Virus record (IMG/VR): IMGVR_UViG_3300032240_002419
Location: 1,803-65,802 of that record
Direction: 5' to 3' (one strand)
Origin: a virus
Lineage: Duplodnaviria; Caudoviricetes
DNA length: 64,000 nt
Positions 819 through 53,702 of this stretch are shown piece after piece (within the stretch, counting starts at the first letter, position 1; each line of letters starts with the position of its first letter). The notes under the pieces are model-generated. The model had not been told where the DNA came from. It saw only the letters and a list, made by a program, of their open reading frames with translations, and searched no databases. A program made the translations under genes and the position numbers.

Positions 819-1341
819 CCTACTGGCCCTCTGTGGGCTGGCCGGAAGCGGAAAGACCTTTGCTTCCAATATGCTGATTGACCAATGGGATTTCCACCGC
901 CTGAAGTTTGCGGGTCCCATTAAGGACATGCTGACCGCGCTAGGTCTGACGAAAGAGTATCTGGAGGGTTGCTTGAAAGAGGAGCCCACCGATATGCTCT
1001 GTGGAAAATCTCCACGTCAGGCCATGCAAACCCTTGGCACAGAATGGGGGCGGACCCTCATGCACCCGAACTTCTGGGTTCAAGCTTGGAAGAACCGGGC
1101 AAGGGCCACCCTTTATAATGGTTTCAAGGTGGTCGTAGACGATTGTCGATTCCAGAACGAAGAGGATGCCGTTCGAGAACTGGGTGGCAAAATCATCCTG
1201 ATCAATCGTCCGGGAATTCAACCTGTGGCGTCTCACATATCGGAGCAATTCGTTCCCAAAGCTGACTTCGTGATTGAGAATTCCGGATCAATCTTTGACT
1301 TGAGGGTAAAACTTCAAGACATCATGAAGTCCCTTGAATGA
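799..1341 (+). CDS. deoxynucleoside monophosphate kinase
   Basis: P-loop GLAGSGKT, FAGPIK, SPRQAMQTLGTEWGR, VVDDCRFQNE, HISE motifs of phage dNMP kinases. Confidence 0.9.
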   Translation: MSLKKNNLLALCGLAGSGKTFASNMLIDQWDFHRLKFAGPIKDMLTALGLTKEYLEGCLKEEPTDMLCGKSPRQAMQTLGTEWGRTLMHPNFWVQAWKNRARATLYNGFKVVVDDCRFQNEEDAVRELGGKIILINRPGIQPVASHISEQFVPKADFVIENSGSIFDLRVKLQDIMKSLE

Positions 1342-2624
1342 AGACTCTGTATGATCGGCAGGAAAAGCACGTTCGCAATCTGTGCGGAATCCTGTCAGGC
1401 CATAAGTCAGTTCTAGACTCAAGCGAGACCGGAACCGGTAAGACGGTTTGCGGAGCCGAAGTCGCCCGTTTGTGCAGCGGGTCGACTTTGGTGGTCTGTC
1501 CCAAAGCCGTTATCCCGACATGGGAGCGAGAGCTCAAGGAACGGGGTGTCAAGGATTTCAACGTCATCAACTACGAGAAACTCCGTACCGGTAAAACCAA
1601 GTTCGGTAAGTGGGCCAATAAAAAGTGGGTGTGGACCATACCCGAGTCGCTGATCATTTTTGATGAGGCTCACAAATGCAGCGGGGTCTCCACGCAAAAC
1701 GCAAAGATGCTGATCGAGGCCAAAGACCGTCATTTCGTTATGATGCTCTCGGCGACGATAGCCAATAATCCGCTGCAAATGCGTGCGGCCGGATGGGTGC
1801 TGGGATCTCACATGCTGGGCAACTACTGGCAATGGTGCTTCAAGTACGGCTGCGTCAAAAACCGTTGGAACGGTGTCGAGTTCGCTGGTTCCGAGTCGCA
1901 CATTCAGGCACTGGCGGGATCTATAGCTCATCGCTGCGCCCGAATGAAAGCCTCGGAACTTGCGGATCATTTTGCCGAAACGCAGATCATCACCGAGCCC
2001 TTGAACTTTGGAAACGAAATCAAGGACATCTACGACGAAATGGAAAACGAGCTGGCAGAGCTGGAGGCTAGAGCAAAAACCGACAGCAAGAACAAAGCTG
2101 CCGAGGCTTTGGTGAAACAGCTACGCGCACGCCAACGAGTCGAGTTGCTCAAAGTGCCAGTCATCGTGGAGATGACGGAAGATCTTTTGGCAGAGGGAAA
2201 GAGCGTCGCAATCTTCGTGAATTTCAAACAAACGTTGGAGGCCCTATACGACAAGGTAGATCAACGGCTGGGGGTCGGCGTCATCCACGGAGATCAATCG
2301 GCCGAAACCCGACAGGCGAGTATCGAAATGTTTCAAGAAGATCGAGCTAGGATTATGCTGGCAAACGTAGCCGCTGGCGGAGTCGGGGTATCGCTTCACG
2401 ACGTCACGGGCAAGCATCCCCGAGCCGCGATCATCTCCCCCTCTTGGAACGAGAAGGACATTATTCAAGTCATTGGACGAGTCCATCGCGCTGGAGGAAA
2501 AACTCCTTCGATGCAACGAATACTGTTCGCCGCAGGAACGGTTGAGGAAAAGGTTCAGCAATCTGTCAACAAGAAAATAAAAAGATTAAATACTCTCAAC
2601 GAAATCGCTTGCGCGTCCGAATAG
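1338..2624 (+). CDS. SNF2-like SF2 helicase
   Basis: ETGTGKT, DEAH, SAT, QVIGRVHRAG motifs. Confidence 0.9.
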   Translation: MKTLYDRQEKHVRNLCGILSGHKSVLDSSETGTGKTVCGAEVARLCSGSTLVVCPKAVIPTWERELKERGVKDFNVINYEKLRTGKTKFGKWANKKWVWTIPESLIIFDEAHKCSGVSTQNAKMLIEAKDRHFVMMLSATIANNPLQMRAAGWVLGSHMLGNYWQWCFKYGCVKNRWNGVEFAGSESHIQALAGSIAHRCARMKASELADHFAETQIITEPLNFGNEIKDIYDEMENELAELEARAKTDSKNKAAEALVKQLRARQRVELLKVPVIVEMTEDLLAEGKSVAIFVNFKQTLEALYDKVDQRLGVGVIHGDQSAETRQASIEMFQEDRARIMLANVAAGGVGVSLHDVTGKHPRAAIISPSWNEKDIIQVIGRVHRAGGKTPSMQRILFAAGTVEEKVQQSVNKKIKRLNTLNEIACASE

Positions 2625-21449: not shown

Positions 21450-21724
21450 GGACGTTTGCCTTACAGACTCAGAAACCGATCACTGCTGGCTGGACACCTA
21501 CCCACGAGGCCTTGGCCTTGGTTTCCAAACCCAACAGTGCCAAGCCAAAGAAGTTGAGACAGCCAAAGACCAAGCGGTCTGCCTCCAATCTCTACGGCAA
21601 AGAGTTCGATCCTAAGCGCTGCATCTATGCCGTATCCGATCCGACCGGATTTTGGCAGTGCGGTCATGTCGCGGGGAAGGGCCCCAAAGAGCTCTTCTGC
21701 GGACGACACGCTACTGCGGCGTAG
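21446..21724 (+). CDS. hypothetical protein with C-terminal Cys/His zinc-finger-like motif
   Basis: RC..x..QC..x..FCGRH. Confidence 0.6.
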   Translation: MRTFALQTQKPITAGWTPTHEALALVSKPNSAKPKKLRQPKTKRSASNLYGKEFDPKRCIYAVSDPTGFWQCGHVAGKGPKELFCGRHATAA

Positions 21725-22109
21725 TAGGTTCGACTGTCGGCTTAGTCTTGTTAGAACGAAAATGCTTAACGCATTTCTCCATTAGGTTCTCAAGGAGGTA
21801 GGCGGCGGCCTCTTCGGTGCCCTCTGCCTCCTTGACACCTGTGTGGTGAAGCACGTTAAAAGTGACGTGGCACAACTCGTGTGCCAGCAAAGCCAACCCT
21901 TCCGGGGTATCCTTGAAGTCGTGCATGAACATCAAGTTCCCGTGCGAAGTATAGAACGTGATCGCATCGGTCTCGTCGTAATCTTCCATATCGACCAGCT
22001 CATCAATCTTCTTTCTCTTGAGCCATCCCTGCGCTTGTTCCTTGGTGCAGGGACAGAAGAGATAAAGACGATCCTTGTAGGGTTCAATCACAAAAGCTTT
22101 AGGTTTCAT
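21711..22109 (-). CDS. small zincin-like (HExxH) protein
   Basis: LLAHELCHVTF...EEAAAYL. Confidence 0.7.
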   Translation of the reverse strand: MKPKAFVIEPYKDRLYLFCPCTKEQAQGWLKRKKIDELVDMEDYDETDAITFYTSHGNLMFMHDFKDTPEGLALLAHELCHVTFNVLHHTGVKEAEGTEEAAAYLLENLMEKCVKHFRSNKTKPTVEPTTPQ

Positions 22110-22117
22110 GTTATTAG

Positions 22118-22879
22118 TTAGGTTGCGTTTGAAGAACTCATGGTTGCGTAAAAATTAAAGCTTATACTTCCATCCGTTAGATCATAATTAGACCCAAGCC
22201 TTGAATATGCTCCATCAGTTAATTTACTGTATAGAGTTCCTCCAAAACTTGCCCCAAAAATAGTCAGGGAATAGCTTCCATTAGCAGTAAAAGTTGATGA
22301 TCCTTGATTTTTCGAGTCGCCTGACCATCCATTTCCTTCTATACTTATTAAAGTAATCGGAACTTTTTTAGTTTCTTTTTCAGGGCACCCCACGTAAAAA
22401 ACTACTTCCATGTGTTCTAAGTTATCAAGAGTAGAGTACGAATTTACTCCGTAACAACTAACCTGTGTGTACATAGTTTGACCGGGATAATAAAGATCCA
22501 AAGTACATACCGCATCATATACAGAACATAAAGAATCAAAAGTATGTGTATCTCTCTCATTGGTTTCGTCTTCTGCTGGTCCCTCCCCAACTCCTCCCGG
22601 CTCGTAATAAAAAGTGCCGTCCGCCACGTCGTTTACATAAGAATCCGCAGTTGCGTACGCGTTTCCATCCGAGTCGTCCGGACAATCTCCAGTATAATCA
22701 TAATTCATCTGGGCCGTTAAATCCCAATCGTTGCTACTTAAAGTTATAGTAGTTTTTTTCTCTATGTCGGCAATGATTTCCGTTTGATCAACGTATTGAG
22801 TTTCTCCTATTTTTCCGTGCGGAGCTCCTAAGAGTTTAGTATCTGTTTGATCGTTGCAGCAAGGGTATAAATAAAACAT
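22118..22879 (-). CDS. acidic, AT-rich hypothetical (possible virion surface) protein
   Basis: 253-aa D/T/Y/S-rich ORF, visibly lower GC than neighbours. Confidence 0.65.
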   Translation of the reverse strand: MFYLYPCCNDQTDTKLLGAPHGKIGETQYVDQTEIIADIEKKTTITLSSNDWDLTAQMNYDYTGDCPDDSDGNAYATADSYVNDVADGTFYYEPGGVGEGPAEDETNERDTHTFDSLCSVYDAVCTLDLYYPGQTMYTQVSCYGVNSYSTLDNLEHMEVVFYVGCPEKETKKVPITLISIEGNGWSGDSKNQGSSTFTANGSYSLTIFGASFGGTLYSKLTDGAYSRLGSNYDLTDGSISFNFYATMSSSNAT

Positions 22880-22895
22880 AGTCTTTGAGGTAAAA

Positions 22896-23306
22896 TTATA
22901 AAGTAGGTTCCAAGTACGCTCCTATATCAATCAAACCTGCGTGACGTTCCCTATGGCACCTGCAGCATAGCAAAATGCATTTCTCCGCTTCTTCAGTTGA
23001 TTTTTGTTTATGCCCACGGATCACACTTATATGAGCTTTCTTAGTGGAAGGGTCTAGGTGATCAAACTCCAAAGCTTGTATGCATTTGTTGTATCCGCAA
23101 ACAGCGCAAGCGCCTCCGTAGGCCATCTTCAAATCCTTTGCAAGCCTGCGTCTCCGCTCTCGATTGCGAACGACCACCTGCTGCTTGGCCCCTTTGGTCA
23201 ACACGTAGTGTACCGAAGAACGGCTGCACGGAATTGCTTCAGCAATTTCCCGATAGCTCAGGCCCTTGCTTCGCAATTTGAAAATCTGTTTTCCTAGTTC
23301 AGTCAA
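22896..23306 (-). CDS. HTH-HNH endonuclease-like protein
   Basis: GLSYREIAEAIPCSRSSV HTH; CAVCGY..ALEFDHLDP..CILLCCRCHRERH. Confidence 0.8.
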   Translation of the reverse strand: MTELGKQIFKLRSKGLSYREIAEAIPCSRSSVHYVLTKGAKQQVVVRNRERRRRLAKDLKMAYGGACAVCGYNKCIQALEFDHLDPSTKKAHISVIRGHKQKSTEEAEKCILLCCRCHRERHAGLIDIGAYLEPTL

Positions 23307-23324
23307 ACGTTGTGATCAGTAAAT

Positions 23325-23339
23325 GATACGAACCATTCG
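23325..23339 (+). repeat. 15-bp repeat copy 1 (GATACGAACCATTCG), operator-like
   Basis: Identical copy at 23717-23731; core CGAA-N3-TTCG palindrome. Confidence 0.7.
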
Positions 23340-23487
23340 GTCAACATATTAATTTCTAGTTCGGGCTATTTGATTGACACATCAAAAAATCCCGATCTAG
23401 TGTCGCCCACCATTTAGCGTCCTGTAAATTGCAATCAACTTACATGAAGTTAAATACAACCCAAACCAACACCTAAAATAAAATATT

Positions 23488-23682
23488 ATGAGCAATCTAT
23501 TTAATAACTCCGCTCTTAAGAAGTACATGCTAGAGCGCATCAAGGTCGTCAATCCCGGACGCGGGGACAAGTTCACTCGTGTGTCGGCCGACGCCATTGT
23601 TGACCTAGACGCCCGATTTCGTGGCGTTGTCGACGCTTACCTCCGTGCCCAGACCACGGGCAAAACCATCACCACACCGTGA
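23488..23682 (+). CDS. putative histone-fold protein
   Basis: LFNNSALKKY (a1), RVSADA (L1), amphipathic a2, GKTI (L2). Confidence 0.55.
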   Translation: MSNLFNNSALKKYMLERIKVVNPGRGDKFTRVSADAIVDLDARFRGVVDAYLRAQTTGKTITTP

Positions 23683-23716
23683 TTTTGCTGTTGACGCTTA
23701 ACACGATTTACCACAC

Positions 23717-23731
23717 GATACGAACCATTCG
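23717..23731 (+). repeat. 15-bp repeat copy 2 (GATACGAACCATTCG)
   Basis: Overlaps putative -10 of TTGACG-N17-CACGAT promoter. Confidence 0.7.
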
Positions 23732-23736
23732 ATTCT

Positions 23737-24054
23737 ATGCCCGACATCATTCTGCACTCTATTTTTCAAGAAGGCTCGGATCTTGAAGAGATCGCCAGTT
23801 GCGTGACTGCCTTTCTTGACGGCGATTGCGGAACTATAACCAGTGACGACGAAGTTCTAGGATTCATGAAACGCAGCGTTGAGGGTAAGGCTCGACACGG
23901 CATCTATGAAACCAAAACCGGAGGACGAGTTCACGTCATCGGCGACGACGAAAAAGTCATGGCCATGCCTGACATCATCTTTGCGCAAAGCGGGGCTGGC
24001 TCGCTCTGCTCAATGAATACCTGCCAGCACAACCACGAAACATCCAATGAGTGA
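23737..24054 (+). CDS. hypothetical acidic protein
   Basis: 105-aa ORF. Confidence 0.65.
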   Translation: MPDIILHSIFQEGSDLEEIASCVTAFLDGDCGTITSDDEVLGFMKRSVEGKARHGIYETKTGGRVHVIGDDEKVMAMPDIIFAQSGAGSLCSMNTCQHNHETSNE

Positions 24055-24307
24055 AGCATGGACAAGGAAAGAAGGAAAAAACCCTAAGGGCGGGCTGAAC
24101 GCCAAGGGCAGGGCCAGCTACAACAAAGCGCACGGCGGTAACCTCAAGGCTCCCGCTCCGCATCCCAAATCGAAATCTGACTCCGCTCGACGCAAAAGCT
24201 TTTGTGCCCGCATGTCCGGCATGAAGGCCAAGTTGACCAGCGCCAAAACCAAGAACGATCCCAACAGCAGAATCAACAAGTCCCTTCGGGCTTGGAACTG
24301 CAAATAA
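24047..24307 (+). CDS. conserved basic phage protein (DUF6321-like)
   Basis: AWTRKEGKNPKGGLNAKGR, RRKSFCARM, SRINKSLRAWNC. Confidence 0.8.
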   Translation: MSEAWTRKEGKNPKGGLNAKGRASYNKAHGGNLKAPAPHPKSKSDSARRKSFCARMSGMKAKLTSAKTKNDPNSRINKSLRAWNCK

Positions 24308-24309
24308 TC

Positions 24310-24570
24310 ATGGCCACGAAGAAACGCGACTATTCCTACGACACTGCCTACGAGTCTTCTCCCGAGCAGATTAAAAACCGAGAGGCTCGTAACCTAGCCC
24401 GCGCCCACGCAAAGAAACGTCTGGGTGCTTCAACAGTTAAAGGCAAAGACGTAGACCACATCAAACCACTATCACGCGGCGGAGCTAAATCCGACGGCAA
24501 CACCCGACTACGGTCTGTCCACTCCAACCGAGGCGACAAGACCATGTTCCAACACAGACACGGCAAATGA
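24310..24570 (+). CDS. small HNH endonuclease
   Basis: GKDVDHIKPLSRGG..NTRL..SNR. Confidence 0.8.
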   Translation: MATKKRDYSYDTAYESSPEQIKNREARNLARAHAKKRLGASTVKGKDVDHIKPLSRGGAKSDGNTRLRSVHSNRGDKTMFQHRHGK

Positions 24571-24911
24571 GCAAAGACACCATCCACCAAGACCAAGACG
24601 CTTACGATCAAGTCGTACAGCACGACATCACCCAATCCATCCTCAAGGCCGAGGAGTCTGGGCACCTAGCCGGGGCAGAAGCTCCGGTTTTTGCTTGCCA
24701 TACGTTCCTTCCCACAGGAGGCGGAGATGTTTATGCACGGGTCATTACTCGTCAGCTTAATCACCTTGCTAAGCAACTGGGAGTCCTAGGCTTTCAAGTG
24801 TTGTATAAAGAGGACACCTTTAAGACCGATACGGATAAGCCCGATCACGGGTACTTCCAAGTCCGAGTCTTTGCCAACGTACCCCCAGAAGACAATGGCT
24901 CCGAAAACTAA
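24567..24911 (+). CDS. hypothetical protein
   Basis: ATGA-coupled 114-aa ORF. Confidence 0.65.
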   Translation: MSKDTIHQDQDAYDQVVQHDITQSILKAEESGHLAGAEAPVFACHTFLPTGGGDVYARVITRQLNHLAKQLGVLGFQVLYKEDTFKTDTDKPDHGYFQVRVFANVPPEDNGSEN

Positions 24912-25080
24912 ATCCAAGGTCAACGCCGCTGGTAACTACACCAAGCCAACAATGCGTAAAGAATTGTTTAACCGTATTAAGGCTGGCAGTAAAGGCGGCA
25001 AGCCCGGTCAGTGGTCGGCTAGAAAAGCTCAGCTATTGGCGACTAGGTACAAATCCAATGGCGGGGGTTACCGCGACTAA
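24895..25080 (+). CDS. basic protein, N-terminal half of DUF5872-like family
   Basis: NYTKPTMR, GSKGGKPGQWSARKAQ, YK..GGGY. Confidence 0.75.
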   Translation: MAPKTKSKVNAAGNYTKPTMRKELFNRIKAGSKGGKPGQWSARKAQLLATRYKSNGGGYRD

Positions 25081-25083
25081 ACC

Positions 25084-25314
25084 ATGAGAAAACCTCAAAC
25101 ATCTCTCAAGGAATGGACCAACCAAAAGTGGCGCACCAGCGATGGCAGTTTGTCCAAGGGCAAGAAAAGATACTTGCCTGACGCTGCGTGGAAAGCTTTG
25201 ACCCCATCAGAGAAGTCTGCCACCAACCGAGCCAAGGCCAAAGGAAACCGCTCTGGTAAACAATTTGTAGCGCAACCTAAAAGCATAGCCCGTAAGACAG
25301 CCAAATATCGTTAG
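25084..25314 (+). CDS. basic protein, C-terminal half of DUF5872-like family
   Basis: QTSLKEWTNQKWRT, RYLPDAAW, ATNRAK, GKQFVAQP. Confidence 0.75.
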   Translation: MRKPQTSLKEWTNQKWRTSDGSLSKGKKRYLPDAAWKALTPSEKSATNRAKAKGNRSGKQFVAQPKSIARKTAKYR

Positions 25315-25338
25315 TCTAACCCCAAACCCAACAACACC

Positions 25339-25506
25339 ATGCCCGCAAAAAAGAACCCCATCCACATCAAAGAGTCTCACAAGGGACGTCTGACCGCCAT
25401 CGAAAAGCGGACAGGCAAGTCTCCCTCCGAGCTGAAGAACAGCAAGAACCCGGCCGTTCGCAAAATGGCTACGTTCGCGCTCAACGCCAAGAAGTGGAAG
25501 CACTAA
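25339..25506 (+). CDS. small basic phage protein
   Basis: MPAKKNPIHIKESHKG...RKMATFALNAKKWKH* (55 aa, below the ORF-track cut-off). Confidence 0.7.
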   Translation: MPAKKNPIHIKESHKGRLTAIEKRTGKSPSELKNSKNPAVRKMATFALNAKKWKH

Positions 25507-27601: not shown

Positions 27602-30600
27602 TTATCCGTTAATCTTGAGTTTTCCCGTCAACACGTCGCGTTCGACCTTTGCTTTGGCATAGGCCGTAGCGGCGTGATTGATGCTGGGACCGTCCAGTAT
27701 GGACTGAGCCAGATCCCTATCCATCTGGGTCAGCCTTTGAACGAGCTGTGGAGTAAGAATCTTCTTCAGCAGCTCACCCCTGTAGATAACGAACTGACGC
27801 CATGCGGCGTCTCCTGAATCGTTCAGGGTCTTATACTCGCCCTTCTTGTTTACGAGAATTTCCGTGGACTTCTTAGGTCCAGACAGGAACAGCCCATGAT
27901 CCAGCAGAGGATTGAGGATAGGGTCAGGGGGTGCCTGAGCCACAAACAGCCACCTGTCCGTTAGCGGATCGGTTGCGGCGTGAGTGATCGGGTTCCCCAA
28001 GATGTTGAGGGAAGGCTGGTTGTAACCCAGATAGAAGGGCATGAACTGCGCCGCTTTGCCAGCCGCCGAGGTAAGGTCAAGGTTATTGACTTCGCGCCCC
28101 GTTCCTTGGGTGGCGATCGAGTTGCGGATAAACCGCATGATCTGAGGATTGGTAAACTGGCTGGCTGTTCCGGCTAGCTGCTTGACAACCGCTTTGGGGG
28201 CCGAAGCACCCTGAGGGTCGTGCAGCACGTCGATAAGATTCTTTGCTCCGCTAAGGAAGTGATGCTCCAGAGGGCTCATGGCCACTCCGAGCGCCATCCT
28301 CCAGATAGCGTCTCCAGCATAAACATCCGGCCTCTGAATTACTCCGTGAACCTTCTTAATTGCCGGAGCGTCAAAAGTCATGTAGTCGTGCAGGGTACCC
28401 AGCATGGTTCCCAGCAAATCAACTCCGGGCATAGCCTTGTACGGGATGTAGGTGTCCCCAATCTTGAGAGTATTGGGACGTGCTCCCGAGGCCATCCACT
28501 CGCTGCGCTTGGCGTAGTCTTTGGGACCCGCCCCGTAGAACATGAAATCGGGTTTCTTGCCCGTTTCCATTTCGTCGTGCAGCTGCTTCAGGAACCAAGC
28601 GGTAATGGCCGTGGCTACCACGGTTCCAAAGGCAGACTTGGCCATGAGAGCGTACTGATCGGCCGACCCTTCCACGTATTTACCAAACGCGTATTTGGAG
28701 TCTTCTCCCAGCAAAAGATTGGACAGGGTGCGATTCTTGGCTTTGGCAAATCCGAGCGGGCTATAGTCCAAGCTGTTATTCATCAGGTTGCTGATGATCC
28801 TGACGAATGGGAAGATGAACTGAGTAACCTTAGTCTTGCGGTTCAGGGTCCCGATGATTCCGTCGGCCACCATTCCCGCCAGTCCTTTGGCGTCGCCCTT
28901 GAGGGTCCAATCCTTAGTCAGCTTGTCAATCCGCTCTCCCTTGAGAAGATCCATAAGATCCTTGCCTGTGGAGATCTCTTGGTGCAACTGCTCAAGGCGG
29001 TTGGCCATAGAGAACTTGTTGTCCCACTTGCCCATGTTCTCAAAGAATCCGGAATCAACTTCTTTCTGAAGCTGCTCCCTTGCCGCAGCCATCTCTTCTT
29101 GTGTGGGGGCAAAGACAGTCCTCATCCTCTCGGCGAGTTCCTTTCCTTTGATTCCGCCGTTCAGGAGGGCCGCTCTCATGGCCATGCGTTGATTGAGTTC
29201 CCTAGCGGAGTTCGCGTTAAGAGCGTCAAAGGCAGACATGAACCTAGGTAGAATCGCCATGGCCCCGGCATACTTCTGGAACCACTTAGGACCTACCCCT
29301 TCTTTCAGGAGGTCCGCTCCGCGCTTTCCAATTCCCTGCTCCAGACCGATACCAATCTGTCCCGTGGTAAGAGCACGGAGAGCCTCGCGTCCAAACGGGT
29401 TACCTCTTGCGCCCTTGTCGCCCAGCAACATGGTATCCAAGAAATCTTTCAGGTATCCCACGCTCTCTTGGAACGAGTTACCTTTACCCACAGACTCAAC
29501 GAATTGACCGAAGGTTTGGAAAGCACCCTGCAACCGGACGTTGACGAATCCGCTGAAGCCGTGCGTCAGGAACGTCGGGGGCCCGGTAAGAATCGCGGAC
29601 CGGAAGATTTCAGGTAGAATGTTAAAGGCTGCCTTGGCTGCCTGTACCCCACCGGCTTTGAGCTGCTGGTTGATGATCTCGTTTGCGATCATTCCTTGGA
29701 AGTTGGTCAGCTGCACGTTGCGCTGATCGCTGTTCTCAGGGAGTTTCATGATTTCATCAGCTTTCTCCCTGACCGCTTTTACAAAGTCTGCATCGTAACC
29801 TCCAATTCCTAGGCTCTCCAATAGGGTTTGATGAATATTGTCTTCGTCAAACTTGCCTAATTTAATGTACTCTTCCAGCTTCTTTGCCATCTCAACGGGC
29901 TTTACGGCACCCTTGGTGGCGTAGGCTTCAAACACGGCTTTGGGCAGGTCAGTCGCAGCGATCTTTTGAACCGCCTTGTTGAACAGTCCGGCTAAGTTTC
30001 CGGTGAGAGACTCGACGGTCTCCGGAGGAGCTCCCTCGGGGAGCATCTGAGCAATGAAAGCCTTCAGGTCGCTACGGTTAAACTCGTTACCGGAAAGCAA
30101 CTGAGTCAGCTGTGAGATCTGCTCCGGGTCGGTGATTCCCGATTTAGACAGGAGATCAGAAGCCGCCTTCATTGTGGCTTCCGCAGCCCTGAGTTTGATG
30201 GACGTGATGCTGTCCATGAGGCCCTGCAGATTGATCTTGCCCTTGGTAAGATCTTCCACGCTTCCGCCTAGGGTTCCCTTAAGGAACTGGTCGACGTAGT
30301 CTCTTGAAGACAGCTCGTCGATATTCTTGCCGGTATTAAGCACCTGTCCGCTGGCGCTCAAGGTTTTCACAGATAGGTTATGAGCCTCGATATTCAGCCT
30401 GTTGGCCTTTTTCAGCTCTAAGCCCTCGGCTATTGACAGAGGCCCCGTGCTCTTTTTATCCAACAAGTCCTGAACCACCTTTTGATATTCTCTCTCGGCG
30501 CGGATAAATCCACGATTGATAGCCGCCAACGAGTATTCTGCGTTGGGGTTAGACAGCATTTTCTTCAAACTATCATAAGCCGCATCAGTACCAACCTTCT

Positions 30601-33600
30601 TAAACAGGTCGTCCATTTGAGCGTCCCACTTGGGATTTGATCCCGTCTCGTATTGGTTCGGAGCGTAGGCAGCCCGGTTTTCTTCAGTAAGGTACTGTTG
30701 ATCACCCTCACGGGCGGTAGATTCTTTTGTGGCAGGAGATTGGGCACGGAGTTCTCCCTCGTTCTCACGAGTAGCCGGGGTCATGCCAATAAGTTCATTC
30801 AACCATGCCTCATCTTCTGGAGACGTTTTTGTTTTCGGAGCTACTCTTTTCGTCCCAAGATTTTGTTTTATCTCTGCATACGTTTCCGGAAAAACCAAGC
30901 TCAACGCTTGTCTGGCCGCAATGTTTGATTCTATACGAATGGCCATCGCCATCCTTTCCACGCTCGAATAGTCTTCGTTGTTTTTAACGTAATCCCAAAT
31001 CTTTTTGTAATTTTGAGTTTTGATGGACTCGTTTTTGAACCCCTCGCGTTGTACGTTGAAATTACTTGCCAAATTGTACAGGATTTCAAAGGTAACCCTA
31101 CCGTACTTAGGGTAATCGGTCATTGCCCGCTTCATTAAAGTAGTCCGTAAAGAAGAAGGAAGATTTGGATTTTGAGTTAAGAAAGTATCAATGATCGGGT
31201 TATTTAAATCTGCAAATGCTTTATAGTTACCGGCTCGATCCTGCCCCAGCTCATCTTCCAAAATTTTTCGCAGTTCGCGTCCTTCACTTTCGTTCTCCAA
31301 ATAGGGCATTCCCTTTTCTTCGATCTTTGTCGGATCGAATTCCGGATTTCTTTCAACAAGCTGTTTGGCTATTTTTTGAATTCTTTCCGGGGAAGTTGAA
31401 GGATTTTTCAATTCAAACAGCTCGTAGTTCTTAAGCTGATCGCGTCGCGCGTCGAGCAATTTTGAAATGTCCTGACTGTACTCTTCCGGAATCGTCCCGT
31501 TGTTTGCTTTACCCTGTATCTCTGCAATCTTGCCGCCGTCAATTATGCGAATAGCAGCAGCGGGTCTGTCGCCATGGGTGAGTATCCACATGCCCCCCTC
31601 CTTAAGATACGGCTCAGCGTTATAAGTTTTTGTGCACCAGTTGTCGTGCGAAAGAGATTTTAGATTGTCGACATTGGTTTGAAAATTTTGAGGATCTTCC
31701 GATCGGGAAGGTATGTAAATCCACTCTCTATTTTCTGTAGCTTTTACCGTATCGGCAGCATTTTTAATGGCGTAGTCCGCAAGACTTTTTCGGTACGCTT
31801 TCAGAAGATCAAAATTTTGATCCTTAGGATGTAAAGCGACTTGTTCCCTCAAACGAGCTAAAACACCCGGGTTTAGCGGCAGAGTCTCGCCAGCTCCGTA
31901 AGCTCGGTCAGAAGACAAAGCATTGTAGAGCATCTCGTGAACCATAGCCTGCCAATAGGGATCTTTAGCGTATTCTTGATTCCCTTCCGTTAAATAATTT
32001 TTCCATACGGAATAGTTTTCTTCACGCTCTTCGGAAACTTTTTTGGCCATCTGACTGGCTTTAAGTTTTTGCGCTTCTTCACTATCGGACAGGAACCTAC
32101 GGGCTGCTTCCCCTCCCTGTCCTGCATTATCTTGATTAGCGTATGCTTCCTTAACCAAGATAGCCGCCATATCATCAATCGATATTACTAACTTGTTTTG
32201 AGTCTTAGAAACGATTCCGTTAACGATTGAATCAATCTGCTCAGGCAGGTTTTTTTTATTTAGGTCAATCAGCTTTTCGTATTTCTCCACAAACAGGCGA
32301 CCAGTATCGCTTTCGCCCAATCCCATCTTGACAGCCTTCTTGTATGCAGCCTGAGCAAATAGCGACCACCGCTTGGGGTTGCTGCTAATTTCTCGGGTTT
32401 TGTTGGACAGCATGTTGTAGCTCTTTTCGGCAAAATCCAACTGACCGGAAAGCGTAGCATCTTCTGGAGCATACCGTAGTTTTGCTTGCAGCCAGCGCGT
32501 GATGTTTTTGATGTAGTCCATCAGAGCACCAAGGATGCTAGGATTGCGATCCACTTCACGCATCACTTCGGTGGTGTGCCCCATACGCATCATCTGACGC
32601 AGCATACGGGTATACTCCCAGCCAACTTGGAAATTGCTCTTCAGGAAGAAATTGATCCGGTCATTGCTCGCGTTCTTACCCAAGTAGAATCTGGCGAGCT
32701 TTAGCTTCTCTTCGTTGGATAGCTTGGCTCCGATTTCCGTTAAACGATCCTGAGCTTCAGGGCTGAACGTTCCGGTCTCGTCGATGACGCCAGCGATGTG
32801 CTCTACCTCTTCGTCACAGGCAGCCTCGATGTATTTACGAGCCTGCTCTTCGGTCATTCCACGAATCTGATTTTCCAACAGGTTCACATCGTACCGTACT
32901 CCAAACGAATTGTCGGCTGTGTTGATGTGGGCCTCCATGACTCCGGCCGTTTCTCCGGGTTTGGCTCCGGCGTTCATGTCCGGGTCGGCGTAGAACTCTA
33001 CCCCGGGGAACCGGTCTTGTAGGGTGGACCGGATATACTCGTGGGCGTCCATCGGAATCTCTCCCTCGGTCTTGGCCGTAGCCATGCGGGCAGAGCGAGC
33101 TCCAATGTCGGCCCTCTCGTGCAGTCCGTCGAGAATCTGGTCAACGGTAAAGCGATCGGCAATACGGGTCGCTTGGCTTACCAGCGCCTTACGCTCCCGT
33201 TCCGGAATGTCAGAGAATTGTGCAGCCAAACGAACGACGTCCTCGGCACTCAATTCCTTGGCCTCTACCAAGGCTCGCAGTAAGGCAACCTTGTCGACGA
33301 GTTTTGTATCGGCAGCTTCAATCTTCTTAACTGCCTGATCCTTGAGTCGGGAAGCGATAGCCTCCGCAGTCTCTACGGAGACTTCGCCGGGAAGACGATC
33401 TTCGGTGGGTTTGAAAACTTCTTCGCTGTCTTCAGGCGCAATTCCGCTCTCGGCAAAGTGATCTTGAAATTCCGTACCGGATTCCCCAAGCGGAGCATTC
33501 AGAGAGACAGTGGCAGTACCTCCGGTCTTCATGCGCCTACGAATTTCGTCTATTTCGCTCTTTGATTTACGTAGGGCTTTGTTGACCTCTTTCTGAAAAG

Positions 33601-36457
33601 CGGGACCGTCTTCGATCTTTGCGAGGAATCCTTCTTTCTCTCCGCGCATCTCCTGAGCGACTCGGCCCATGAACTCGGTGATTGCACCCCAGCGCATGGC
33701 ATACTGAGCGTCGTCATCATATCCCCGATAAAGATCCAGCGGGGGGAAGCTCCTCAGTCGGGAGATATTTTTGTCGCCCTCGGGGTTCTCATAGACTCCG
33801 TATTCTTCTTCGGAGAAAGGGGTCTCCTCTCCCCGCTTGCCTTGACTCGGAAGGGCGGGTTCCTCTTCTTCAATCTTTCCTTCACGGATGGCTTTCTCAC
33901 GAGCTTCGCGTAGGCGGTCTTCGCGTTCGATTTCTTGCTCTACCTTGCCCTTGCGGTTCTGAGTCCTTTTCTTAGCTTCCTCGGATTGAGTGAGCTCGCG
34001 TTCTAGAGTACCCCCTAACCGGGTAGTCAATGCATTGTTCAGCCTGATCAGAATCTGGTTAAAGGGCGTTTTCTGCTCGGGGGGAAGGGAATTTACAATC
34101 GCGTTGTAGGTGTCCGTGGACTCCTTGAGATAAGCGGAAGGACTGAGGCGATTGGTCTGGGAATAGATCCTGTCGGCCTCGGTTCGGTTTTCTACGTTCC
34201 GCTTGTACCACAGCAAAGCGTTTTCGAGCCGGTCAGTCGGCATCGGGTTCTCAGCCATGACGCTTCCCGGATCGGGGTTGGTCTGAGTACTGATCGTTCC
34301 CTTGTCGGTTTTGCGATTCTTGCCCGTCTTCTTGAGGTATTTATTAATGAAGGTGGCAATCTGCTGCTGGCTGAAATTTCCGTTCTGGCCGGTGGGTTTG
34401 ATTTTTCTAGCCTCGATAACGGCGTCAAACTTGGAAGGACGAACAATAAACTGACCGGACTCCGGATCGTACTCGAACGAGATTGCGGGATTGAATTGCT
34501 GCGGATCGTCCATGTTGACGAATCTCGGTACAACTGTGTCTTCGCCCCGGAGCTGACGAATCTCAAGAGCTTGAGGATCATTGATCCAGTTCTCGATGTG
34601 ACCCAGATCCTCTTTGGCTTTAACAGGATTTTTAAGGTACTCGTTGGAGTAGTCCCACAGGTCCTTAAGTCTCGGCGCGATCTCTTCTCCAAATGCAGCT
34701 CGCATCCTATCCGACCAAGCGGCGAAATCCGTGACTCCATCATTTATGAGCTTGGCTCCCTGAATCGAAAGGCCCAGATCTTTCTTAAGTCCAGCGCGGG
34801 GATCTTCTTCGGCCTTGGTTGCCGGGGATTTGGCAGCCAATTCGGTAGTGCCTCCCAGTAGATCGTCACCCAGCTTAAATAGGTCATCGAGGTCCTGCTT
34901 CTGGGGAACGGCGGGCTCTTCTGTAGCGATAGGTGCCTCGGTCGAGATGGGCTCCTCTGCAGGCATTGCTTCACCATTCTGGACCCGTGCAATTCTTTGA
35001 CGAATGCTGTCGGCTAGTTTAGCGGCATCGGATTTGGTCTTGGCGTTGCCCCTCTGCTGTCGAATTCTTGTCTCCAAAAGGAGCTCGTTTAGTTTGTCAA
35101 CATTCCCTGCCTTTTCAGCCTCGACCGCCTGAGCCTGAAGTTGAGGAATCGCCGTCCGTACGTGTTGACGATTGCGCTGCTTGTAGTCTTCAGCAACAAG
35201 CTGTTTCTCGCCGTCGATCGGTTGAGGGGCCTCAACAATCGGAGCGGTAGCAGCTTCAACTTTTTCGGTTTGTTCTGCAGCAGGGGTCTCGGTAACACCC
35301 GGCGCAACCTGTTGGATCGGCTCGGCGGGCGAAGATTCCAAAGGGAGCGGTAGTTGCTCCTCTTTAGCTGGTTCGGCTTCGGTTACCGGCTTTTGTCCCT
35401 TTTGCAACTCTGGCAGCACGCCGGTTTGCTCGACATTCGGCTCAACCGCGATTGGTTCGCTGACGGCTGGCGTTGTGCCTGCAGTGCTTGGCGTAATGGG
35501 TTCTTGCTCTGGGGTTTTTTCATTGACTGCTGGGGTTGTGGGTTTGGTTGCTTGTAGCGCATCTGCGGTCTCGCTTGCCCCGGAGCTGCGTAAAGTTTCA
35601 TCCAATTTCTGACTGGCTTCTTCGGAGACAATGTCCGGAACTTCGGGTTCGGGAGCAGTCTTCTTCTGGGGTTTGTTAAAAGTCGTTGGCGTCTGAGTCT
35701 GCTGCTCGGAAGCCTTAAACGGATCGAGGAACATGCCGCCCGGACCAACATACGGCTTGACGGCCATTCCTGCGGCCCCCTTCAGGGCTGCGGTGCCAAG
35801 GTCTTCTCCTTGTGCAACCCCCATGCCTGTCTGGGTTCCGATAGCGGCCGTCCCCCCGATTGCATGACCAAAGTTCTCCAGAGCTTCTTTTGCGGCTTTG
35901 CCCTCTGGGGTAGCTTGTTGAGACAGCGTTTGTAATTCCTTGACGCCGCCTTTCTTGGCCATGGCTGCCGCGACATCCTTGATACCCTGTCTCCCTGCAG
36001 TCGTGCCAACCGCTTTCACTAAACCGCCAGCCGCTTTCAGGCTGGGTCGGCCCGTGCCAAGCAAGCCTCCGGCAAACGTTGCCCAAGGATGTTCCTTCTC
36101 CTCCTTTTCGGCCGTTTCGGTACCGAGGAAAGATTCCGGAGCGTACTTGTTTGCAAGAATATCTTGTCCTTTGCGAGCCGCCATGCCTGCTCCGAAAGCA
36201 CCCGCAACACCCAGCACCGGAACAGCGATGGGAGCTAAGGGTCCGGCCGCTAGTCCAAGAGAGCCCATCGCAAGTGCTCCCCCCATTCCGGCAACTCCGG
36301 GAACAACGCTACGGCCCGCTTCGTGAAGTAGCGCCGTTCCAGCGGAAGTGGGCGCTTCGGGTTCGGGAGAACTGTACGTCTCCTCCCATGGCATTTTGTT
36401 AGAAGGGGTTGCCTCTGGGGAGGCATACTCTTCTTCCCAAGGCATTTTGTCGGACAT
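27602..36457 (-). CDS. giant internal virion/ejection polyvalent protein (2951 aa)
   Basis: MPWEE repeats and Gly/Ala hydrophobic N-terminus, PcfJ-like WC module, helical C-terminal region; end of structural operon. Confidence 0.8.
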   Translation of the reverse strand: MSDKMPWEEEYASPEATPSNKMPWEETYSSPEPEAPTSAGTALLHEAGRSVVPGVAGMGGALAMGSLGLAAGPLAPIAVPVLGVAGAFGAGMAARKGQDILANKYAPESFLGTETAEKEEKEHPWATFAGGLLGTGRPSLKAAGGLVKAVGTTAGRQGIKDVAAAMAKKGGVKELQTLSQQATPEGKAAKEALENFGHAIGGTAAIGTQTGMGVAQGEDLGTAALKGAAGMAVKPYVGPGGMFLDPFKASEQQTQTPTTFNKPQKKTAPEPEVPDIVSEEASQKLDETLRSSGASETADALQATKPTTPAVNEKTPEQEPITPSTAGTTPAVSEPIAVEPNVEQTGVLPELQKGQKPVTEAEPAKEEQLPLPLESSPAEPIQQVAPGVTETPAAEQTEKVEAATAPIVEAPQPIDGEKQLVAEDYKQRNRQHVRTAIPQLQAQAVEAEKAGNVDKLNELLLETRIRQQRGNAKTKSDAAKLADSIRQRIARVQNGEAMPAEEPISTEAPIATEEPAVPQKQDLDDLFKLGDDLLGGTTELAAKSPATKAEEDPRAGLKKDLGLSIQGAKLINDGVTDFAAWSDRMRAAFGEEIAPRLKDLWDYSNEYLKNPVKAKEDLGHIENWINDPQALEIRQLRGEDTVVPRFVNMDDPQQFNPAISFEYDPESGQFIVRPSKFDAVIEARKIKPTGQNGNFSQQQIATFINKYLKKTGKNRKTDKGTISTQTNPDPGSVMAENPMPTDRLENALLWYKRNVENRTEADRIYSQTNRLSPSAYLKESTDTYNAIVNSLPPEQKTPFNQILIRLNNALTTRLGGTLERELTQSEEAKKRTQNRKGKVEQEIEREDRLREAREKAIREGKIEEEEPALPSQGKRGEETPFSEEEYGVYENPEGDKNISRLRSFPPLDLYRGYDDDAQYAMRWGAITEFMGRVAQEMRGEKEGFLAKIEDGPAFQKEVNKALRKSKSEIDEIRRRMKTGGTATVSLNAPLGESGTEFQDHFAESGIAPEDSEEVFKPTEDRLPGEVSVETAEAIASRLKDQAVKKIEAADTKLVDKVALLRALVEAKELSAEDVVRLAAQFSDIPERERKALVSQATRIADRFTVDQILDGLHERADIGARSARMATAKTEGEIPMDAHEYIRSTLQDRFPGVEFYADPDMNAGAKPGETAGVMEAHINTADNSFGVRYDVNLLENQIRGMTEEQARKYIEAACDEEVEHIAGVIDETGTFSPEAQDRLTEIGAKLSNEEKLKLARFYLGKNASNDRINFFLKSNFQVGWEYTRMLRQMMRMGHTTEVMREVDRNPSILGALMDYIKNITRWLQAKLRYAPEDATLSGQLDFAEKSYNMLSNKTREISSNPKRWSLFAQAAYKKAVKMGLGESDTGRLFVEKYEKLIDLNKKNLPEQIDSIVNGIVSKTQNKLVISIDDMAAILVKEAYANQDNAGQGGEAARRFLSDSEEAQKLKASQMAKKVSEEREENYSVWKNYLTEGNQEYAKDPYWQAMVHEMLYNALSSDRAYGAGETLPLNPGVLARLREQVALHPKDQNFDLLKAYRKSLADYAIKNAADTVKATENREWIYIPSRSEDPQNFQTNVDNLKSLSHDNWCTKTYNAEPYLKEGGMWILTHGDRPAAAIRIIDGGKIAEIQGKANNGTIPEEYSQDISKLLDARRDQLKNYELFELKNPSTSPERIQKIAKQLVERNPEFDPTKIEEKGMPYLENESEGRELRKILEDELGQDRAGNYKAFADLNNPIIDTFLTQNPNLPSSLRTTLMKRAMTDYPKYGRVTFEILYNLASNFNVQREGFKNESIKTQNYKKIWDYVKNNEDYSSVERMAMAIRIESNIAARQALSLVFPETYAEIKQNLGTKRVAPKTKTSPEDEAWLNELIGMTPATRENEGELRAQSPATKESTAREGDQQYLTEENRAAYAPNQYETGSNPKWDAQMDDLFKKVGTDAAYDSLKKMLSNPNAEYSLAAINRGFIRAEREYQKVVQDLLDKKSTGPLSIAEGLELKKANRLNIEAHNLSVKTLSASGQVLNTGKNIDELSSRDYVDQFLKGTLGGSVEDLTKGKINLQGLMDSITSIKLRAAEATMKAASDLLSKSGITDPEQISQLTQLLSGNEFNRSDLKAFIAQMLPEGAPPETVESLTGNLAGLFNKAVQKIAATDLPKAVFEAYATKGAVKPVEMAKKLEEYIKLGKFDEDNIHQTLLESLGIGGYDADFVKAVREKADEIMKLPENSDQRNVQLTNFQGMIANEIINQQLKAGGVQAAKAAFNILPEIFRSAILTGPPTFLTHGFSGFVNVRLQGAFQTFGQFVESVGKGNSFQESVGYLKDFLDTMLLGDKGARGNPFGREALRALTTGQIGIGLEQGIGKRGADLLKEGVGPKWFQKYAGAMAILPRFMSAFDALNANSARELNQRMAMRAALLNGGIKGKELAERMRTVFAPTQEEMAAAREQLQKEVDSGFFENMGKWDNKFSMANRLEQLHQEISTGKDLMDLLKGERIDKLTKDWTLKGDAKGLAGMVADGIIGTLNRKTKVTQFIFPFVRIISNLMNNSLDYSPLGFAKAKNRTLSNLLLGEDSKYAFGKYVEGSADQYALMAKSAFGTVVATAITAWFLKQLHDEMETGKKPDFMFYGAGPKDYAKRSEWMASGARPNTLKIGDTYIPYKAMPGVDLLGTMLGTLHDYMTFDAPAIKKVHGVIQRPDVYAGDAIWRMALGVAMSPLEHHFLSGAKNLIDVLHDPQGASAPKAVVKQLAGTASQFTNPQIMRFIRNSIATQGTGREVNNLDLTSAAGKAAQFMPFYLGYNQPSLNILGNPITHAATDPLTDRWLFVAQAPPDPILNPLLDHGLFLSGPKKSTEILVNKKGEYKTLNDSGDAAWRQFVIYRGELLKKILTPQLVQRLTQMDRDLAQSILDGPSINHAATAYAKAKVERDVLTGKLKING

Positions 36458-45343: not shown

Positions 45344-46936
45344 TTAGTATTCCCAAACCCAAGTATCAGTATCAACTTTTAAAAGTATTCCCATGGCACC
45401 TTTACCCGAATACATGTTGTAGTCGAAGCCTCCACTGGCTCCCGTAGCTCCGCGATTAGGCCCAGTAGTAAGCAAGGTTACTCCAGAAGAAACTACTATG
45501 TAAACTGGATTACCGTACCCCATGACAATCCAATAACGAGTACCGGCCGAAACTGGTACAGAAGCATTAGTGGGAATCGTTATAGTAGCGGAACCGCTGG
45601 AGTTCTTTACATATATAACTCCGTTAGCATTTGCAGTTCCAATTCCAAAAGTGGTGGTCTGAGGGTATACCGTCAACGAAGAATTTGATAGCCCAGTCGC
45701 TCCGGTGGCTCCTGTAATCCCTATCGGCCCCGTAGCCCCAGAGGCTCCAAGCAAAGAAGAAACGGTCGACGACCAACTGTTAAAGGTTCCAGTACCGCCA
45801 TAAACATCAACATTTATGGTAATGCTGGTATTGGATACCACGCTGGTTACCACTCCTTCTACATAATAAGCAGAATTTGTAGTGGGTATAAACCTAACGC
45901 GACCTCCGGCAACGTACGCTCCCGTTGAAGAAACATTAAAAGTTTTTGATCCAGATCCAATGGTTACCGAGCTAGTACTAGCGGGAAGCAAATAACCCAG
46001 CCCAGTAGCGCCAGTAAGTCCCGTTGCTCCGGTAGAACCTGTCGCTCCAGTAAGTCCTGTCGCTCCGGTGGCTCCTGATCCGGTAGCTCCTACAGTCGAA
46101 GTAAGTAGTATAGACCAGCTAGAGTATACCGGACCAATATTTAGAGAGCAGTAATCTACCGTTACGATTAAAGTAGTGCCTGAAAAAGAGGTAATCGTTC
46201 CGGACATATAACCGGAATTTCCCGTGGCCACACATCTTACGTAATCCCCAACTTGAAAAGCACAGGCAGTACTGGCCAACGAAGTAGTAAAAGTACGTGT
46301 ACCAGAAGCAACGGCAGCTAAGCTAGTAGTAGAAGTAAGGCCCTTATACCCCAATCCCGTAGCTCCCGTAGATCCTATTAAACCGGTAGCTCCTGTAACG
46401 CTCAGACCCGTCGCTCCAGTAAGTCCTGTCGCTCCTGTAGATCCCGTATTACCTTGAAAAGCGCCCATGGAAACCCAAGACGTGCCGTTCCAAACGTATG
46501 CGAAACCGTTAGTGCTAAGTACATAGACGTCGCCCACAGTATTTCCGGTAGAGGGCAAAGTGGAAACTACTCCCTTGGCCAAGATACCCTTCCCTGTAGC
46601 TCCGGTGGCTCCGGCTCCAGTCGCACCAGTAGCTCCCAACAATCCAGTAGCCCCAGTAGCACCGTTAGGTCCAGTAGCCCCGGTTACACTAACTCCGGTC
46701 GCTCCAGTAGCTCCCATTACTCCGGTAGCTCCGACTCCCGTAGCCCCGGAAGCACCAACCGATCCCGTTAACCCGGTAGCTCCAATTCCAGTAGCTCCAG
46801 TAAGCCCTGTAGCTCCTACCAAACCTACTCCGGTAGCCCCGACAGGACCTGTAGCCCCGGTGGCTCCGGTAGCTCCAGAGGTTAGTACTTGAAAAGGAGT
46901 GGACGGGAAAGTCCCGAGGTTTAGGGAATAGCTCAT
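45344..46936 (-). CDS. collagen-like (G-X-T) fibre protein 3
   Basis: GAT/GLT triplets interrupted by two copies of a beta module; C-terminal KVDTDTW. Confidence 0.85.

Positions 46937-49909: not shown

Positions 49910-53702
<3,793 letters not shown>

Follow-up and report, generated by a model that had tools for sequence, protein, structure and literature searches.

A family of small basic proteins of tailed phages and integrated elements with a predicted histone fold that lacks the third helix

Histones were, to our knowledge, long thought to be absent from bacteria and their viruses. According to recent literature, dimeric bacterial histones were characterized only in 2023–24, and phage histone-fold proteins have so far been predicted only. 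In the account of the α3 histones (Schwab et al. 2024, PMC11390915), α3 is 3–4 amino acids (aa) long and α2 is 4–5 residues shorter than in nucleosomal histones; the Thermococcus kodakarensis protein HTkC (PDB 9F2C), a face-to-face α3-truncated archaeal histone, keeps a short α3 and belongs to a group defined there by the RxTxxxxD motif and by tetramer contacts; in the face-to-face type, two dimers join into a torus-shaped tetramer by way of conserved Arg/Asn contacts. HBb (Bd0055) from Bdellovibrio bacteriovorus and HLp from Leptospira are "bacterial dimer" histones (PDB 8CMP, 8FVX, 9EZZ, 9QT0), and single HBb dimers are described in the HBb report as contacting DNA at the L1–L2 loops and α1 and bending it (PMC11317129). 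For phages, Liu et al. (bioRxiv 2024; hLife 2025) report 289 nonredundant Caudoviricetes histone-fold proteins in IMG/VR, all of them predicted, in the clusters VTTHFP, VHHHFP, VFFHFP, BBVHFP, MFVHFP, and VKHFP. Here, we analyze a 64,000-nt stretch of DNA (the window) comprising bases 1803–65802 of the 65,802-bp IMG/VR record IMGVR_UViG_3300032240_002419 (Caudoviricetes), which has direct terminal repeats and is rated a 100% complete phage genome, and describe in it a gene for a 64-aa protein with a predicted histone fold that has no α3. Phage histone-fold proteins having already been reported in 2024–25, what this family adds is an α3-less form.

We think it probable that the product of the open reading frame (ORF) at 23488..23682 is a basic, stand-alone protein with a histone fold of the α3-truncated type, α3 being wholly lost, and that it binds DNA as a dimer; for the histone fold and the dimer taken together, both of which come from structure prediction, our confidence is high. 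The fold assignment is well supported by convergent, individually modest computations. The gene and the predicted parts of its product are as follows, with helix limits as assigned by DSSP in the model.

23488..23682, + strand: stand-alone predicted histone-fold protein without α3, 64 aa (ORF list, homologs, comparison of nonsynonymous and synonymous differences [pN/pS], AlphaFold2)
23497..23505, + strand: N-terminal L4-F5-N6 segment, part of the predicted dimer interface; conserved, with L4 and N6 almost invariant
23506..23550, + strand: α1, residues 7–21 (DSSP), with conserved basic positions 7, 11, 12, and 17
23551..23586, + strand: L1, residues 22–33, ending T30-R31-V32-S33 (conservation; predicted pairing with L2 of the partner)
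23587..23646, + strand: α2, residues 34–53, amphipathic (DSSP), with a predicted antiparallel crossing with the partner α2 around residues 44–47
23647..23679, + strand: L2 and C-terminal tail, residues 54–64, with invariant G58, K59, T60, hydrophobic I61, and no α3

The ORF is intact, starts with ATG, and has its stop codon within these coordinates. It is a real gene, because its relatives keep the length and synonymous differences far exceed nonsynonymous ones. In a word-indexed protein search all 12 candidates had an e value of 0.01 or less, a length of 62–64 aa, and an identity of 73–100%, and 30 of the 64 columns are invariant in the alignment of these 12 close homologs. Pairwise comparison among seven equal-length sequences, from which the homolog in L005 was omitted because it has one codon fewer and in which the pair of identical sequences L006/L007 was disregarded, gave pS values of 0.59–0.93 (near saturation) versus pN values of 0.08–0.23. 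Close homologs are encoded in seven IMG/VR loci, and a family ORF is present at the match in 42 of 42 collected loci, the one in L052 being N-terminally short (55 aa). A chance open frame is scarcely conceivable: the ORF is indeed short, has no Shine–Dalgarno sequence ahead of its ATG, and is overlapped by a 66-aa ORF on the opposite strand, but purifying selection acts in this frame, the length is kept in hundreds of relatives, and the predicted fold is confident, and we regard the homologs of 62–64 aa, the large family, and pN far below pS as refuting it.

AlphaFold2, given a 36-sequence family alignment, predicted helices at residues 7–21 and 34–53 and none thereafter, with a predicted local distance difference test score (pLDDT) of 93.9 and a predicted template modeling score of 0.70; a replicate, for which a member with 36% identity was modeled from an alignment that excluded the window clade, had a pLDDT of 94.4. 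In both models the predicted geometry is that of a histone fold, α1–L1–α2–L2, with a long central helix. The preliminary description of this locus had listed a 64-aa ORF containing LFNNSALKKYMLE (residues 4–16), RVSADA (31–36), a long amphipathic helix, and GKTI (58–61), all of which are found, and it had claimed that α3 is absent, in agreement with a model that is nonhelical beyond residue 53. The chain stops four residues past T60: G58-K59-T60 is followed by I-T-T-P and the end, with no Arg two positions before the Thr and no Asp, and all that remains of α3 is a nonhelical tail of four residues (the family consensus ends T-I-K-P). It had further described α2 as about 6 aa shorter; a shortened α2 is borne out by the 24 residues between S33 and G58 (25 in both the family consensus and HTkC), the shortening given for α3 histones being the 4–5 residues cited above, and our comparison with nucleosomal histones is taken from that paper (PMC11390915), because no nucleosomal histone is in our alignments.

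We then compared both models with 48,161 representative chains using VIA-align. The first 28 rows for the window model are all histone or histone-fold complex entries by title, and the first 14 rows for the replicate model are histone-fold entries headed by HTkC; in the TFIID, SAGA, UAF, and telomerase entries we take the matched chain to be the one with the histone fold. The best rows have Z scores of 5.0–5.8 and root-mean-square deviations (rmsd) of about 2 Å over 52–62 residues. Giardia H3 (Z 5.7, rmsd 1.9) and CENP-A (Z 5.5, rmsd 2.2) align over 62 residues of the window model, and for the two models, respectively, HTkC has Z scores of 5.4 and 5.8 (rmsd 2.0 and 1.9; 54 of 58 residues aligned), HLp 5.2 and 5.4, and HBb 5.0 and 5.2; TAFs, CENP-S/X, and NC2 are also in the list. 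According to the guidance for this search a Z score below 8 can reflect a common arrangement, and the weight that we give to it comes from the uniformity of the list and from full-length coverage at about 2 Å, not from Z. A Foldseek comparison, which the preliminary description had proposed as a check, pointed the same way without reaching significance: the first PDB row is HTkC (e value 2.7; template modeling [TM] scores 0.55/0.60) and the rows are mostly histones, and no match in PDB or BFVD had an e value of 0.001 or less.

A link to histones was also found at the sequence level, in profile searches of 177,635 distinct PDB sequences. The single sequence found no histone in this set. The family profiles gave the following results.

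12-sequence profile, close relatives only: no histone match in PDB
A2 profile, 36 sequences: best match HTkC (9F2C), e value 0.018
A4 profile, 133 sequences: best match HTkC, e value 0.0035
A5 profile, 115 sequences without the window clade: best match HTkC, e value 0.0032
A8 profile, 74 sequences below 80% identity with members derived from the loci added: HTkC, e value 4.9e-4 (23 bits)

An e value that falls with the diversity of the profile is expected of a true remote relationship. HTkC is the only PDB match of these profiles below 0.1, the runner-up matches lying at 0.16–0.71 (0.71 in the A8 search). The A8 alignment runs from profile positions 1–57 to HTkC residues 1–50 and pairs the N-terminal basic helix, RVS, and the entire α2. 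The preliminary description had compared the motifs with RVSDDA (L1) and RKTI (L2) of archaeal HMf histones and with an LV..S.VKK start in bacterial histones; HTkC shows an N-terminal L-V-K-S-K-V-K stretch as well as RVS. Because R31, V32, S33, G58, and T60 are invariant or nearly so in 133 aligned members and the e value reaches 4.9e-4, we consider the resemblance to histones to be beyond chance.

The preliminary description had named the lack of a predicted handshake dimer and of DNA binding as what would refute it, and a handshake homodimer is what the predictions returned. With the family alignment, the interaction prediction score from aligned errors (ipSAE) was 0.86, 0.85, and 0.87 in three runs, versus 0.00 in three of three controls with a substituted partner. 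In calibration, 20 of 30 proteins whose solved structure is a pair passed the mark, as did 1 of 23 whose solved structure is a single chain. The runs had 135–137 contacts and a pLDDT of 92, with 100% agreement in contacts between them. The contacts of lowest predicted error fall into those of an antiparallel α2 crossing (44:44, 47:47, 47:40, and 48:40), of α2 on the partner α1 (48/51/52 with 13/14/17/18), and of L2 on the partner L1 (60/61 with 29/31/32), the loop contacts comprising 61:32, 61:29, 60:32, 60:29, and 31:61. Residues 2–6 are also part of the predicted interface, and residue 10 contacts residue 4. This pattern of predicted contacts is that of the histone handshake, which speaks for likeness to histones rather than for binding.

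Compared with HTkC, which is similarly small (59 aa), the phage family has in common the RVS that ends L1, the 25-residue distance from the Ser to the Gly in its consensus, and the basic N-terminal helix. Gaps of four and three residues in the HTkC alignment indicate that α1 and L1 are longer by these numbers in the phage family; the window protein has G-K-T and lacks the Asp of the motif. Judged by the models, the family goes further than the α3 histones, having no α3 helix in place of one of 3–4 residues. HBb and HLp resemble the phage protein in size and in dimerizing through antiparallel α2 helices, as it is predicted to do, and match it structurally with an rmsd of 1.8–2.0 over 52 residues; unlike the phage family, HBb has an α3 and D49-R51-D58 salt bridges (PMC11317129), and it is chromosomal and essential, whereas the family described here is carried by phages and integrated elements.

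With the phage histones of Schwab et al. (2024; A0A2E7QIQ9) and the VTTHFPs of Liu et al. (2025), the window protein shares, according to their published descriptions, the α3-type fold, the occurrence in tailed phages, and the lack of RxTxxxD; those proteins are described as having a long C-terminal helix and as forming predicted tetramers that bridge DNA, whereas the window family has no C-terminal domain. The short stand-alone α3 folds of Liu et al. have, as described, conserved basic residues in α1 and L2 like those of the window family, but the K8, K9, K47, and R48 given for VHHHFPs do not fit its spacing (K11, K12 ... K59), and BBVHFPs have a C-terminal helix that it lacks. In addition, the proteins of Liu et al. 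are reported to have been found by existing histone hidden Markov models (HMMs), whereas the window family is undetected by PF00808. Going by these published descriptions, the absence of α3 and of RxTxxxxD, a longer α1 and L1, and the lack of a C-terminal domain set the window family apart from the groups of both studies. A search of full-text literature combining Caudoviricetes, histone, and Bd0055 returned only the work of Liu et al.

The family is large. A 12-sequence profile searched against 1.84 billion representatives gave 29 matches with an e value of 0.001 or less, 25 of which are proteins of 59–95 aa with the same pattern; the four long matches (512–2172 aa, with 4–10 matching stretches each) are spurious hits to repeat proteins and were dropped. 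A 36-sequence profile retrieved 254 proteins (clusters) at this threshold among 1076 candidates, a lower bound that puts the family at no fewer than 254 protein clusters (>=254). In the any-length search of representatives, the searches of 32–167 aa, and the 42 loci, members are 55–95 aa long with a mode of 62; longer or fused forms were not found among 8000 scored candidates of 168–2000 aa, which by the search's own note is weak evidence. Among 133 aligned members G58 is invariant, and M1, L4, N6, L15, P23, R31, V32, S33, R45, and T60 are conserved in 90% or more. Because all members are 55–95 aa and no longer form was found, we read the sequences as a separate family that natively lacks α3. 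The "truncated histone variant" of the preliminary description therefore holds for the predicted histone fold, the short α2, and the missing α3, but the protein is not a broken histone.

Standard annotation passes over this family. None of 120 family members listed carries a Pfam domain, and "hypothetical protein" is the sole name given to them. The window protein has no significant match in Pfam, PHROGs, NCBIfam, or PADLOC; 36 family members have none in Pfam, PHROGs, or NCBIfam (best phrog_27997, e value 0.17), PADLOC found nothing for member P0066, and a tblastn search with the window protein against 50,697 GenBank phage records gave no match. In the ESM Atlas, the protein sits among clusters of hypothetical proteins of 59–65 aa labeled 100% viral; as a lead only, the nearest clusters that bear a Pfam domain carry PF00808, and a Bdellovibrionota PF00808 cluster has a TM score of 0.64.

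We next considered where the family occurs. Close relatives are found in phage contigs of about 66–70 kb with the same local gene order. A sister subfamily occurs in metagenome-assembled genomes (MAGs) labeled Chthoniobacterales, Spartobacteria, or simply "bacterium," and Proteobacteria in one short record. The Verrucomicrobiota-type MAG loci are the following.

L009: 3869–6186
L010: 5642–6189
L012: 9–535
L014: 17–4235
L011: 398–1609

In four MAG loci the start of a 62-aa member is within a few bases of where a DUF932-type gene ends (Pfam match in L009), and in L009 and L014 a gene for a WGR-type ATP-dependent ligase lies further upstream; a C5 DNA methylase, a tyrosine integrase, and a tRNA-like stretch are in the vicinity. 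These loci resemble a small integrated element in which DUF932 and family genes form a conserved pair. No DUF932 was found in the window phage, and we therefore do not extend this pairing to it. The family was found in 1 of 301 sampled genomes from the phylum of the carrier MAG, namely the query genome itself, a distribution that fits mobile DNA and not a chromosomal nucleoid protein. PF00808 histones above the cut-off were found in none of the same 301 genomes; a protein of this family would thus be foreign chromatin brought in by a mobile element. A third subfamily comprises 29 viral contigs of 6.6–248 kb, in which the neighbors vary (DUF2997, IMPDH/GMP-reductase, peptide deformylase, and a BrxL-like ATPase). 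In L027 and L032 (168–180 kb), an IMPDH/GMP-reductase-like gene, a peptide deformylase gene, and DUF2997 are near the family member, and in L028 (53 kb) a BrxL-like Lon ATPase is. A profile of the A6 subfamily found no viral locus. Among the neighborhoods examined, we found no partner gene that is conserved across phage lineages.

The family is strongly basic, with a median net charge of +7 and a median isoelectric point of 11.0, and only 1 of 133 members is at or below zero. In a nonredundant set of 28 sequences, basic residues are conserved at positions 7, 11, 12, 17, 31, 45, and 59 (basic share by column 0.75, 0.96, 0.82, and 0.89 at positions 7, 11, 12, and 17), and position 61 is hydrophobic in 28 of 28. 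The preliminary description had suggested that the protein could coat phage DNA or perturb the host nucleoid; the basic charge, together with the conserved basic N-terminus of α1, L1, and L2, is the sole feature that suggests nucleic-acid binding. We propose that two chains would form a symmetric handshake dimer in which the α2 helices cross antiparallel near residues 44–47, the C-terminal half of each α2 packs against the partner α1, and each L2 (G58-K59-T60-I61) pairs with the partner L1 (T30-R31-V32-S33), with I61 and the N-terminal L4/F5/N6 segment probably substituting for α3 in capping the core. Such a dimer may bind DNA without sequence preference through the basic N-terminus of α1 and the paired L1–L2 loops, and may bend or coat it by analogy with HBb, which serves as our working model because the basic positions occupy the sites through which HBb and other histones contact the backbone of DNA. 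In the phage, the protein would be the element's own nucleoid-associated protein, helping to organize, bend, or shield phage DNA, and it may be expressed with the early or middle small genes, a timing suggested by where the gene lies, outside the late − strand block and first in a series of small genes. DNA binding, bending as against coating, the timing of expression, and the target DNA are points that we infer. Small DNA-binding dimers brought by mobile elements are familiar from phage and plasmid nucleoid-associated proteins such as TF1 of phage SPO1, which is of the HU type, and the H-NS-like plasmid protein Sfh; the idea of a mobile element that brings a small DNA-bending or DNA-coating dimer would be analogous, and the folds are unrelated.

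A more far-reaching proposal, to which we assign only a small chance, is that of a portable chromatin: soon after entry, the dimers would cover the DNA of their own element or bend it sharply, and the family would be among the commonest histone-fold lineages of tailed phages and integrative elements. If this were true, the DNA would be protected against nucleases or silencing proteins of the host, or made ready for replication, integration, or packaging, in hosts without histones of their own and by a lineage invisible to current histone HMMs. Apart from this, the family adds a large group, wholly missed by standard annotation, in phages of 13–248 kb and in integrated elements of Verrucomicrobiota MAGs, and it shows how far a histone fold, as predicted here, can be stripped, to two helices and two loops in about 62 residues. 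The protein is small, soluble looking, and readily amenable to experiment, and it could show whether α3 and the R-D clamp are needed for dimerization and for DNA bending.

The gene heads a run of small + strand genes and lies 181 nt from a divergent gene for a helix-turn-helix (HTH)-HNH protein. The neighboring features are as follows.

22896..23306, − strand: HTH-HNH endonuclease, 136 aa (PHROG HNH families, e value 1.5e-22; Pfam HTH_38/HNH)
23307..23487, no strand assigned: A+T-rich spacer of 181 nt between the divergent HTH-HNH gene and the ORF
23325..23339, + strand: 15-mer GATACGAACCATTCG, first copy, exact
23717..23731, + strand: 15-mer GATACGAACCATTCG, second copy, exact, between the stop codon and the next ORF
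23737..24054, + strand: downstream neighbor, 105 aa, conserved in close loci

The HTH-HNH gene is upstream in six of seven close loci and is not beside the more distant members examined. The 105-aa neighbor, which has no Pfam or PHROG match, follows 0–55 nt downstream in six of seven close loci (the window, L001, L002, L004, L005, and L006, not L003), and in the ORF call for L001 it overlaps the family gene. The spacer contains TTGACA at 23374–23379, which on sequence alone may be read as part of a promoter; a promoter scan listed no + strand site in the spacer, and of three runs returned none was listed as RNA. The 15-mer has a near-palindromic core, CGAA-CCA-TTCG, and its two exact copies in the window flank the gene, the second preceded by TTGACG (23691–23696); with up to three mismatches allowed, the window has four matches versus 1.49 expected. 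After the homologous gene in L001 (5234) and in L005 (4925) the core is found as well, so that three of eight loci have it; in five of eight, the interval from the stop codon to the next ORF contains a TTGAC...TACCAC block. The 15-mer and this block could be a promoter, a leader, or an operator.

Three other explanations of the protein were weighed against the DNA-binding histone-fold dimer. It may be a dimeric histone fold that does not bind DNA and serves as an adaptor, as TAF, NC2, and CENP-S/X proteins do; many of the structural matches are indeed non-nucleosomal (TAF4/TAF12, TAF11/13-type, CENP-S/X, and NC2), and the RxT arginine and the α3 Asp are absent. We nevertheless hold such an adaptor, which would bind a factor of the host or of the phage (RNA polymerase or a nucleoid protein, for example), to be unlikely in view of a family that is positively charged in 132 of 133 members with a median of +7, of conserved basic residues at the places where histones contact DNA (the N-terminus of α1, L1, and L2), and of the failure to find a partner gene conserved across lineages. 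Convergence is the second possibility: a non-histone helix-loop-helix protein, for example, a regulator of the flanking GATACGAACCATTCG sites or an antitoxin-like dimer, would account for an exact 15-mer with a near-palindromic core on either side of the gene, and two-helix folds match easily, Z being below 6, all Foldseek e values above 1, and no Pfam histone model matching. Yet there is an independent sequence link, with the HTkC e value going down to 4.9e-4 as the profile is diversified, the structural match spans the whole chain including both loops at an rmsd of about 2 Å, the predicted contacts are those of a handshake and not of a hairpin bundle, and the 15-mer core is beside the gene in only three of eight close loci although the protein occurs in very different phages; we put a low probability on convergence.

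A packaged or structural protein that condenses DNA in the capsid would suit a small, very basic product with further small basic ORFs just downstream, but the gene is on the + strand within the replication and small-gene block, away from the putative structural block (27602–61787, − strand), and relatives are in integrated elements that have no capsid genes in the stretches examined, making this idea decidedly improbable. Several results also weigh against the reading that we prefer, a DNA-binding dimer with a histone fold. The dimer score may stem from histone dimers of solved structure that the predictor had learned. The Foldseek e values are all above 1, and VIA Z scores of 5–6 are under the level at which a fold is accepted from Z alone. 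The sequence link is to a single PDB entry and was no better than an e value of about 3e-3 before the 74-sequence profile, and the family profiles did not reach HBb or HLp. For PF00808 (curated cut-off 21.4 bits), the protein matched 0 families at an e value of 10 or less, the six-frame translation of the phage genome had no match at this level whereas control genomes did, and 0 of 36 alignment members matched the histone model at an e value of 1 or less. Both α3 and the stabilizing RxTxxxxD motif are missing. Lastly, neighborhoods that differ between phage lineages do not indicate a process in which the protein takes part.

The genome as a whole is divided by strand. Between about 800 and 27,000, the + strand encodes a helicase (Helicase_C/ResIII), a DUF2800/PD-(D/E)XK nuclease, a family A DNA polymerase, a DUF5906 primase-helicase-type protein, a DUF2201 metallopeptidase, and many small genes. 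Large genes occupy the − strand from 27,602 to 61,787, among them those for three collagen-repeat proteins and an ORF of 2951 aa, on the strength of which we take this block as putatively structural and late. Viral histones have been described as co-occurring with SNF2 proteins by Liu et al. The helicase at 1338–2624 (+) matches Helicase_C and ResIII and has a subthreshold SNF2 match (24.0 bits vs. a cut-off of 24.9); we rejected it as a histone-linked chromatin remodeler, because it belongs to the replication module, some 21 kb from the gene.

Some further observations concern the surroundings of the gene and the late block. Just downstream, at 24047–25506 (+), there is a run of small, very basic ORFs of 55–87 aa that includes a DUF6321 protein (e value 2.9e-25) and an HNH-like phrog_4590 protein. 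Upstream, three genes on the − strand lie within the + block at 21711–23306 (a phrog_1365 protein of 132 aa, a 253-aa protein without an assigned family, and the HTH-HNH protein of 136 aa) and may be an inserted cassette. They are situated where the GC content of the window is lowest, 0.439 at 22001–24000 versus about 0.52 elsewhere. The giant ORF of 2951 aa (27602–36457, −) has no Pfam, PHROG, or PDB sequence match; its size and its place beside putative structural genes recall the virion-packaged giant proteins of other phages. Collagen triple-helix repeats, with e values down to 1.1e-28, are found in the ORFs at 45344–46936, 49910–52063, and 52101–53693 (all −), which probably encode fiber proteins.

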